300 nucleotides of DNA from Escherichia coli (GTDB lineage Bacteria > Pseudomonadota > Gammaproteobacteria > Enterobacterales > Enterobacteriaceae). Made by a program: the position numbers and the translations under genes. Below the pieces are notes generated by a model. It did not search any database. It was given only the letters and a program-made list of their open reading frames with translations, and had not been told where the DNA came from. Below, one piece after another: positions 1-300 of the stretch (the first letter of the stretch is position 1; every line of letters starts with the position of its first letter). The stretch lies in NCBI RefSeq assembly GCF_003334335.1, contig NZ_QOWQ01000223.1. One strand, written 5' to 3'.

Positions 1-300
1 GACGAACGCATTCTGTCTGGCGTCACCGCCACTGGCACGCATCTGCCTTCACGGGGATTTACAACGATTTGGCCGCCACCTCAGCCTGTATGTGAACACG
101 GCAGCGGAAGCCATCCGCGCCCTGTCGATGCAGGTGCCGGGCTTTCGCCGTCAGATGAACGAAGGCTGGTACCAGATACGTATTGCCGGTGAGGACACGG
201 CACCGGAGGCGGTGTATGCCCGCCTTCACGAACAGCTGGGTGAGGGAACGGTCATCCACATTGTGCCGCGACTGGCCGGTGCCGGAAAGGGCGGACTGCA
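1..300 (+). CDS. I: Phage tail (tip) assembly protein I, lambda gpI family; internal fragment, partial at both ends. Reading frame runs nt 2..298 (99 complete codons).
   Basis: Seen in sequence: frame 2 on the + strand is open across the whole window with no stop codon. Its translation aligns, by recall, with the start of lambda gpI (MAATHTLPLASPGMARICLYGDLQRFGRRIDLRVKTGAEAIRAL...WYQVRIAG...AVIHIVPRVAGAKSGG). Shared blocks include ARICL-GDLQRFGR, AEAIRAL, GWYQ-RIAG, IHIVPR-AGA and a K/S-GG motif. The alignment puts window codon 1 (Thr, nt 2-4) at about residue 4 of gpI, so the start codon should lie about 9 nt upstream of the window. No ATG/GTG/TTG occurs in frame before nt 128. The gene continues past nt 300. 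The lambda sequence is recalled, not searched, so the family call is not database-verified. Confidence 0.85.

Follow-up and report, generated by a model that had tools for sequence, protein, structure and literature searches.

The window, that is, the whole 300-nt stretch of DNA analysed here, has a GC content of 62.3% and carries parts of two genes that overlap on its plus strand. Frame 2 is open in all of its 99 codons (nt 2-298, with the translation TNAFCLASPPLARICLHGDLQRFGRHLSLYVNTAAEAIRALSMQVPGFRRQMNEGWYQIRIAGEDTAPEAVYARLHEQLGEGTVIHIVPRLAGAGKGGL), and frame 3 encodes the peptide RTHSVWRHRHWHASAFTGIYNDLAATSACM and then closes with a TGA stop at nt 93-95. Frame 1 is interrupted by stops, and the minus-strand open reading frames, of 66, 40 and 21 aa, lie antisense to the conserved coding region. 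The Rfam covariance models gave no match in the window at E <= 1, a tRNA/tmRNA scan of the window detected none, and the repeats found within it were limited to short imperfect ones, which we took as chance. The features that could be assigned are the following:

3..95, plus strand: 3' end of the tail-tip assembly gene K (frame 3, last 30 codons and the TGA stop at 93-95)
2..298, plus strand: codons 4-102 of gene I in its long form of 226 aa (tail-tip assembly protein; frame 2)
2..95, plus strand: in-window part of the dual-coding K/I overlap (I in frame 2, K in frame 3; 94 of 103 nt)
32..271, plus strand: beta-grasp (ubiquitin-like, SAMP/MoaD-type) core of gpI (frame-2 residues 11-90)
92..94, plus strand: GTG annotated as the start of I by RefSeq PGAP and in several GenBank records
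290..295, plus strand: Gly-Gly (GGC GGA; frame-2 residues 97-98, read directly from the sequence)

The prediction that frame 2 encodes a protein of the lambda gpI type was confirmed by the uninterrupted frame and by independent searches. In tblastn, the 99 residues matched 341 phage records, among them lambda gpI itself (59.6% identity, E 1e-34). The window translation also matched the PHROG families phrog_4244, annotated as 'tail protein' (E 5.5e-58), and phrog_32 (E 1.8e-29). For the Pfam and PDB searches, the query was the full-length protein of the closest relative, whose amino acids are identical over the window. This protein matched PF06805, Lambda_tail_I, at residues 15-97 (E 2.7e-16), and it aligned end to end with lambda gpI of PDB entry 8iyk (chain 8iyk_I, E 1.5e-95), with 8k35 and 8xcg also found. 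By its match to the N-terminal-domain profile, the protein of the window belongs to the PF06805 family. The gpI of the closest relative possesses, in addition, the C-terminal hydrophobic/plug domain, which in lambda spans residues 134-223 and trimerises within the tail tip, and residues 137-223 of this relative's protein align to PDB 9e7m, in which the gpI chains have 90 residues. NCBIfam has no model naming gpI. Lambda gpI (NP_040599; PDB 8iyk, 8iyl, 8k35, 8xcg and 9e7m; PF06805) occupies the same gene position and shares with the window both the overlap with K, of about 103 nt, and an N-terminal ubiquitin-like domain followed by Gly-Gly. As to the identity between them, the figure at the nucleotide level is 66.7% over the window, and together with the amino-acid identity given above it agrees with the view that this is a diverged relative of lambda and not lambda itself.

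With regard to the frame-3 peptide, 22 of its 30 residues are identical to the C-terminus of lambda gpK, and the K genes annotated in relatives (RefSeq, GenBank) end exactly at the frame-3 stop of the window. The full-length K of the closest relative contains a Prok-JAB domain at residues 3-105 and an NlpC/P60 domain at 111-224; from these positions, K residues 217-247 fall in the window, which therefore encodes the very end of the NlpC/P60 domain followed by a tail of 23 aa. Against NCBIfam, the same protein presented a weak desampylase match (E 4e-7) below the curated cutoff, and its match to a phage NlpC model was also sub-threshold. In lambda gpK (NP_040598; Prok-JAB PF14464 and NlpC/P60 PF00877) the stop codon is placed alike relative to I. 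The lambda RefSeq record differs in the other end of the gene, where a later start is annotated, giving 199 aa compared with 243-247 aa in the relatives. As a separate observation, lambda K occupies positions 1277-1876 of the lambda stretch L003 (14276-14875 of the record), and residues 45-245 of the K of the relative align in tblastn from L003 position 1265, 12 nt upstream of the annotated start. Since the alignment begins before it, the annotated start of lambda K may lie further downstream than the true one and cut into the JAB domain.

The arrangement of the two genes is different from the one originally predicted, in which K would lie immediately upstream of the window and the start of I would overlap the K stop through an ATGA. 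K reaches into the window with its last 30 codons and its TGA, so that the gene order with K overlapping I is directly observed in it. The lambda genes K (14276-14875) and I (14773-15444) share 103 nt, and in the closest relative the long I open reading frame (19993-20673) and the end of K (20095) give the same 103 nt. Among five loci found by exact protein identity the overlap measured 97-103 nt, with 97 nt in a single one (L099). In every one of the lambda-clade relatives examined, and in lambda, K extends about 100 nt into I and there is no ATGA junction. Short junctions, of 4-19 nt, were present only in distant relatives, namely Pseudomonas PMBT3, a Rhizobium phage and Klebsiella JVSB2, and a distant Mannheimia relative is among those with short junctions or separated genes. 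Because the 103-nt overlap recurs in the closest relative and in lambda, nt 2-95 of the window encode two proteins.

We also evaluated how variable the sites of the overlap are across 72 distinct related lambda-clade junctions. The alignment-based search for related loci gave only relatives with 96-99% identity, and the diversity was added by tblastn against phages and by exact-protein look-ups. At third positions of K codons the diversity fell from 0.206 in the K-only region to 0.072 in the overlap (Mann-Whitney p 4.8e-5), and at third positions of I codons from 0.189 in the I-only region to 0.054 in the overlap (p 5e-8). Nine diverse representatives taken alone presented the same trend, weaker at the K third positions (p 0.042). 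With respect to lambda, the window differs at 19 of 95 nt in the overlap and at 81 of 205 nt downstream of it. At the level of sequence, this pattern of variability supports real dual coding of K and I.

Another aspect to be considered is where gene I starts. In the nearest relative, its ATG is located 8 nt upstream of window position 1, and the same was found in all close relatives, in line with the prediction that the window begins about three codons into the gene. In contrast, RefSeq PGAP and several GenBank records annotate I from the GTG at nt 92, which results in a protein of 193 aa and in a GTGA overlap with the K stop. Nine of nine diverged relatives retain the upstream ATG together with a GAGAGG Shine-Dalgarno sequence, and Salmonella and Citrobacter relatives have ATA or ATT in place of the GTG. 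In the 20 nt that precede the GTG, no purine-rich stretch resembling a Shine-Dalgarno sequence is apparent. Furthermore, distant homologues whose I barely overlaps K begin at frame-2 residue 11-14, inside the lambda-clade overlap, which indicates that the residues encoded in the overlap are homologous protein. According to the structure model, initiation at the GTG would delete 33 codons that include strands beta1 and beta2. The conserved ATG and GAGAGG, the starts of the distant homologues and the location of beta1 and beta2 in the overlap all favour the ATG 8 nt upstream, and the GTG is probably not the real start of I. The second in-frame methionine of lambda (M14, MARICL...) corresponds to a leucine (CTG) in the window, and therefore an intact domain is possible only from the upstream ATG. 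On the basis of the model, the 193-aa form would be unable to fold as a ubiquitin-like domain. The database clusters of I contain starts giving 193, 204, 209, 210, 223 and 226 aa.

It should be mentioned that the start of I is called inconsistently across thousands of database entries. A particular situation is that of Yersinia phage vB_YenS_P400 (L089, 1501-1666), in which the frame homologous to I is open from 1501 and runs over the end of K, whose stop is at 1585. Ahead of this stop it offers only TTG candidates and no ATG, and the record annotates I from 1666, which would lose most of the ubiquitin-like domain; this could reflect either a TTG start or a mis-annotation.

Overlapping genes in which the second is in the -1 frame relative to the first, as I is relative to K, may also be read as the site of a programmed ribosomal frameshift, here one producing a K-I fusion. 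The lambda gene pair G/GT is a programmed -1 frameshift pair. In the same direction, the 399-aa profile of PHROG 28576 matches both K (profile positions 1-204) and I (193-393), a few database proteins contain both NlpC/P60 and Lambda_tail_I (listed are P0007, P0015, P0077, P0080 and P0094), and the I frame of the Yersinia phage mentioned above is without an ATG upstream of the K stop. However, the X_XXY_YYZ slippery heptamer is absent from the K frame both in the window and in seven diverged relatives, and the ATG and GAGAGG kept in nine of nine give I an initiation site of its own. Each of the five two-domain proteins listed forms a cluster with a single member, which is what sequencing or assembly frameshifts would produce, and they are most simply explained as frameshift errors or mutations in the overlap, not as programmed frameshifting. 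In distant relatives, moreover, K and I are separated or overlap by only 4-19 nt. We consider a frameshift fusion very improbable, and it was rejected as no slippery site was found.

As regards the genetic context, no exact 300-nt copy was found in complete E. coli genomes, where the best match reached 299 of 300 nt. A 149-nt exact pattern recovered three near relatives from IMG/VR, none of them identical over the 300 nt, and a 199-nt exact pattern had no match in GTDB species representatives or in JGI metagenome contigs. Since the exact source was not found, the context of this particular copy is taken from relatives that are 96-99.7% identical. These are phage and prophage tail modules, in keeping with the prediction of a lambdoid tail-tip module in a phage or prophage, and the suggested search against phages and prophages returned lambdoid tail matches at that same nucleotide identity. 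Deposited phages with 96-96.7% identity over the full 300 nt include PhiR5_1, ASU11 and Stx1a-, Stx2a- and Stx2c-converting phages, among others. In complete E. coli genomes the segment is present in 1889 of 5426, at 6183 places of which 6169 are chromosomal, the median copy number per genome being 2 and the maximum 11, and the chromosomal matches always fall under the annotation 'tail assembly protein' | 'C40 family peptidase'. Plasmid records also matched (19, all of them non-identical and several being very large 'plasmid' records); a plasmid origin was rejected in view of these records and of the chromosomal location of most places in complete genomes.

The best match, in E. coli S1-KEN-03-A (L001), differs from the window by one synonymous change at nt 292 (99.7% identity). 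In this strain the segment lies in a prophage of about 59 kb inserted in ompW, with a split ompW next to the integrase and excisionase genes, and so the integrase that the original prediction had proposed to look for was located in the closest relative. The prophage carries, besides these two genes, an exonuclease, a Q antiterminator, two tRNAs, lysis genes, a terminase and an HK97-type head, followed by tail genes in the order V-G-T-H-M-L-K-I-J-lom-stf. The order M-L-K-I-J is common to lambda, PhiR5_1, the closest relative and diverged Salmonella, Citrobacter and E. coli relatives, and the tail modules of E. coli lambdoid elements (the PPompW family, Stx phages, PhiR5_1 and ASU11) share identical gene order at 96-99.7% identity. 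The expected gene order, with J downstream of I, was thus found in the relatives that were read, and partially in two of them: L098 has a porin gene (L098 1-989) where the tail genes upstream of L, H and M, were expected, and the stretch of L099 ends before J.

The high GC content had been attributed either to a host of higher GC or to the GC-rich late region of lambdoid phages. The second explanation was the one that held. Tail genes have about 56-60% GC in the closest prophage, and M-L-K, I and J of lambda have 57-59%, compared with 46.5% in the adjacent chromosomal genes and 49% in the lysis region of the prophage. The window, at 62%, is a local maximum of this GC-rich late region, and a host of higher GC is not needed given the difference between lambdoid late genes and the adjacent chromosome.

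Several side observations were made on the modules of the relatives. In L001, the prophage looks partly decayed, with a lysozyme gene containing an internal stop, a frameshifted portal gene and an IS1, and with truncated tail-fibre assembly genes too. Cargo of the virulence type follows downstream of its tail fibres, namely an adhesin with a YadA C-terminal domain and a 1335-aa autotransporter peptidase of the S6 family (SPATE-type). The regions concerned by the decay and the cargo are L001 1464-1997, 9491-12075 and 27959-35033. Variable cargo is present at the junctions of the tail-tip module across relatives (L097-L101): the I-J junction contains a minus-strand open reading frame of 100 aa, an open reading frame of 210 aa without a Pfam match, or a gap of 936 nt, and in one relative M and L are separated by an Ail/Lom gene (the cargo coordinates are L097 3194-3496, L100 3247-3879, L101 3146-4080 and L099 568-1092). 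In L001 the I-J gap (20674-21017) begins about 375 nt downstream of the end of the window and measures 344 nt, with 43% GC, compared with 60 nt in lambda. Its minus strand presents a sigma-70-like promoter (11/12 match) and a terminator composed of a hairpin plus a T-run. A published Northern probe for the EPEC prophage small RNA PasB, AATCCCGCAGTGATCGCGGAGCT, matches L001 20686-20708 exactly (PMC8550237, supplementary file 8), and this match places PasB between the tail genes I and J, convergent with I. There is no Rfam model for PasB.

Two other readings concern the kind of element in which these genes reside. The same genes could belong to a decayed, non-inducible prophage remnant, with the K/I junction intact within a cryptic element. 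The pseudogenes and the IS1 of the closest prophage (a frameshifted portal gene, a lysozyme gene with a stop inside it and truncated tail-fibre assembly genes) make a defective prophage a live possibility, and the multiple copies of the segment in E. coli genomes, many of them likely defective, point in the same direction. On the other hand, both reading frames of the window are intact, and the segment shares 96-96.7% identity with Stx-converting phages and with phages whose genomes were deposited as complete and whose host is named, such as PhiR5_1 (on E. coli C) and ASU11. We regard decay of the element as possible though rather unlikely; it would alter only the state of the element and not the coding content of the window. 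The other reading is that a lambda-like tail has been domesticated, for instance into an F-type tailocin or a gene transfer agent, or that an isolated K/I pair has been co-opted. F-type tailocins and the gene transfer agent of Rhodobacter capsulatus (RcGTA) are described as sharing tail-tip hub domains with lambda (PMC10721106). Against this, all 151 phage records that carry the segment, and every chromosomal relative inspected, surround it with a complete lambdoid genome that includes head, terminase, lysis and integrase genes, and the nucleotide identity of 96-99.7% to these genomes makes an independent domesticated lineage very unlikely.

Taken as a whole, the window very probably corresponds to the K/I junction of the M-L-K-I-J tail-tip module of an Escherichia lambdoid siphovirus, most likely a prophage, and encodes a ubiquitin-like domain of gpI that would be removed by gpK. 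An AlphaFold2 model of the 99 frame-2 residues, built with 81 homologues (mean pLDDT 88.6, pTM 0.77), confidently predicted a beta-grasp, ubiquitin-like fold with SAMP1/MoaD as the top structural matches. The overlap with K encodes strands beta1 (residues 11-16) and beta2 (26-30), opposite the 23-aa tail of K. The last modelled strand ends at residue 90 and is followed by AGAGKGG in a C-terminal segment of low confidence; across the 81 homologues this G-rich segment has the consensus 'AGAGxGG'. The window thus comprises the whole N-terminal ubiquitin-like domain of gpI, approximately its first 100 residues, with the beta-grasp and the glycine-rich, Gly-Gly segment of the gpI family. The identity to SAMP1, MoaD, ThiS and Urm1 is just 12-21% at the sequence level. 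Unlike in the systems formed by these proteins and JAB (desampylase) enzymes, the domain of gpI forms the N-terminus of a larger precursor, from which it would be cut off in a cis-context during virion assembly. To our knowledge, neither E1-like activation nor sulfur transfer nor conjugation is known for it, and none is implied.

According to the meeting summary of a 2025 conference talk, gpK detaches the ubiquitin-like domain from gpI by cleavage during tail-tip assembly (PMC12908700). Cryo-EM of virions resolves only residues 135-223 of gpI in one study (PMC10721106) and 134-222 in another (PMC12617516), and gpK was not detected by mass spectrometry of virions (PMC10721106). The reported cleavage and the partial gpI of virions suggest that the main product of the window is a removable ubiquitin-like assembly domain. 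In the mechanism that we propose, gpI would first be made as a precursor, and its C-terminal domain, encoded beyond the window, would dock as a trimer inside the gpJ/gpL tip and hold the end of the tape-measure protein. The JAB domain of gpK would then take off the ubiquitin-like domain, probably after the Gly-Gly. By analogy with ubiquitin/SAMP-JAB systems, we infer that the JAB domain of K would cut at the Gly-Gly encoded at nt 290-295. Within this scheme gpK, whose JAB/MPN isopeptidase domain is N-terminal and whose NlpC/P60 domain is C-terminal, would act in assembly as a non-structural enzyme, the cleavage would serve as an assembly checkpoint, and the protein product of the window would thus be absent from the virion.

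The overlap of about 100 nt, found only in the lambda clade, may also exceed compaction. For example, translation coupling between K and I could fix the ratio of protease to substrate, or the 23-aa tail of K could recognise the ubiquitin-like domain; separately, the 193-aa GTG form, if it is made, could be an uncleavable or regulatory isoform. We put these ideas forward as speculative and improbable.

The window is an ordinary, long-known and very common lambda-like element, and beyond annotation it has little significance. It identifies its source as the carrier of an E. coli-type lambdoid phage or prophage, and its K and I genes are a clear instance of overlapping genes conserved as a pair. 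Automated annotation often cuts gene I by 33 codons, dropping two strands of the ubiquitin-like domain, and this truncation matters for studies of the gpK/gpI ubiquitin-like cleavage step in tail assembly.
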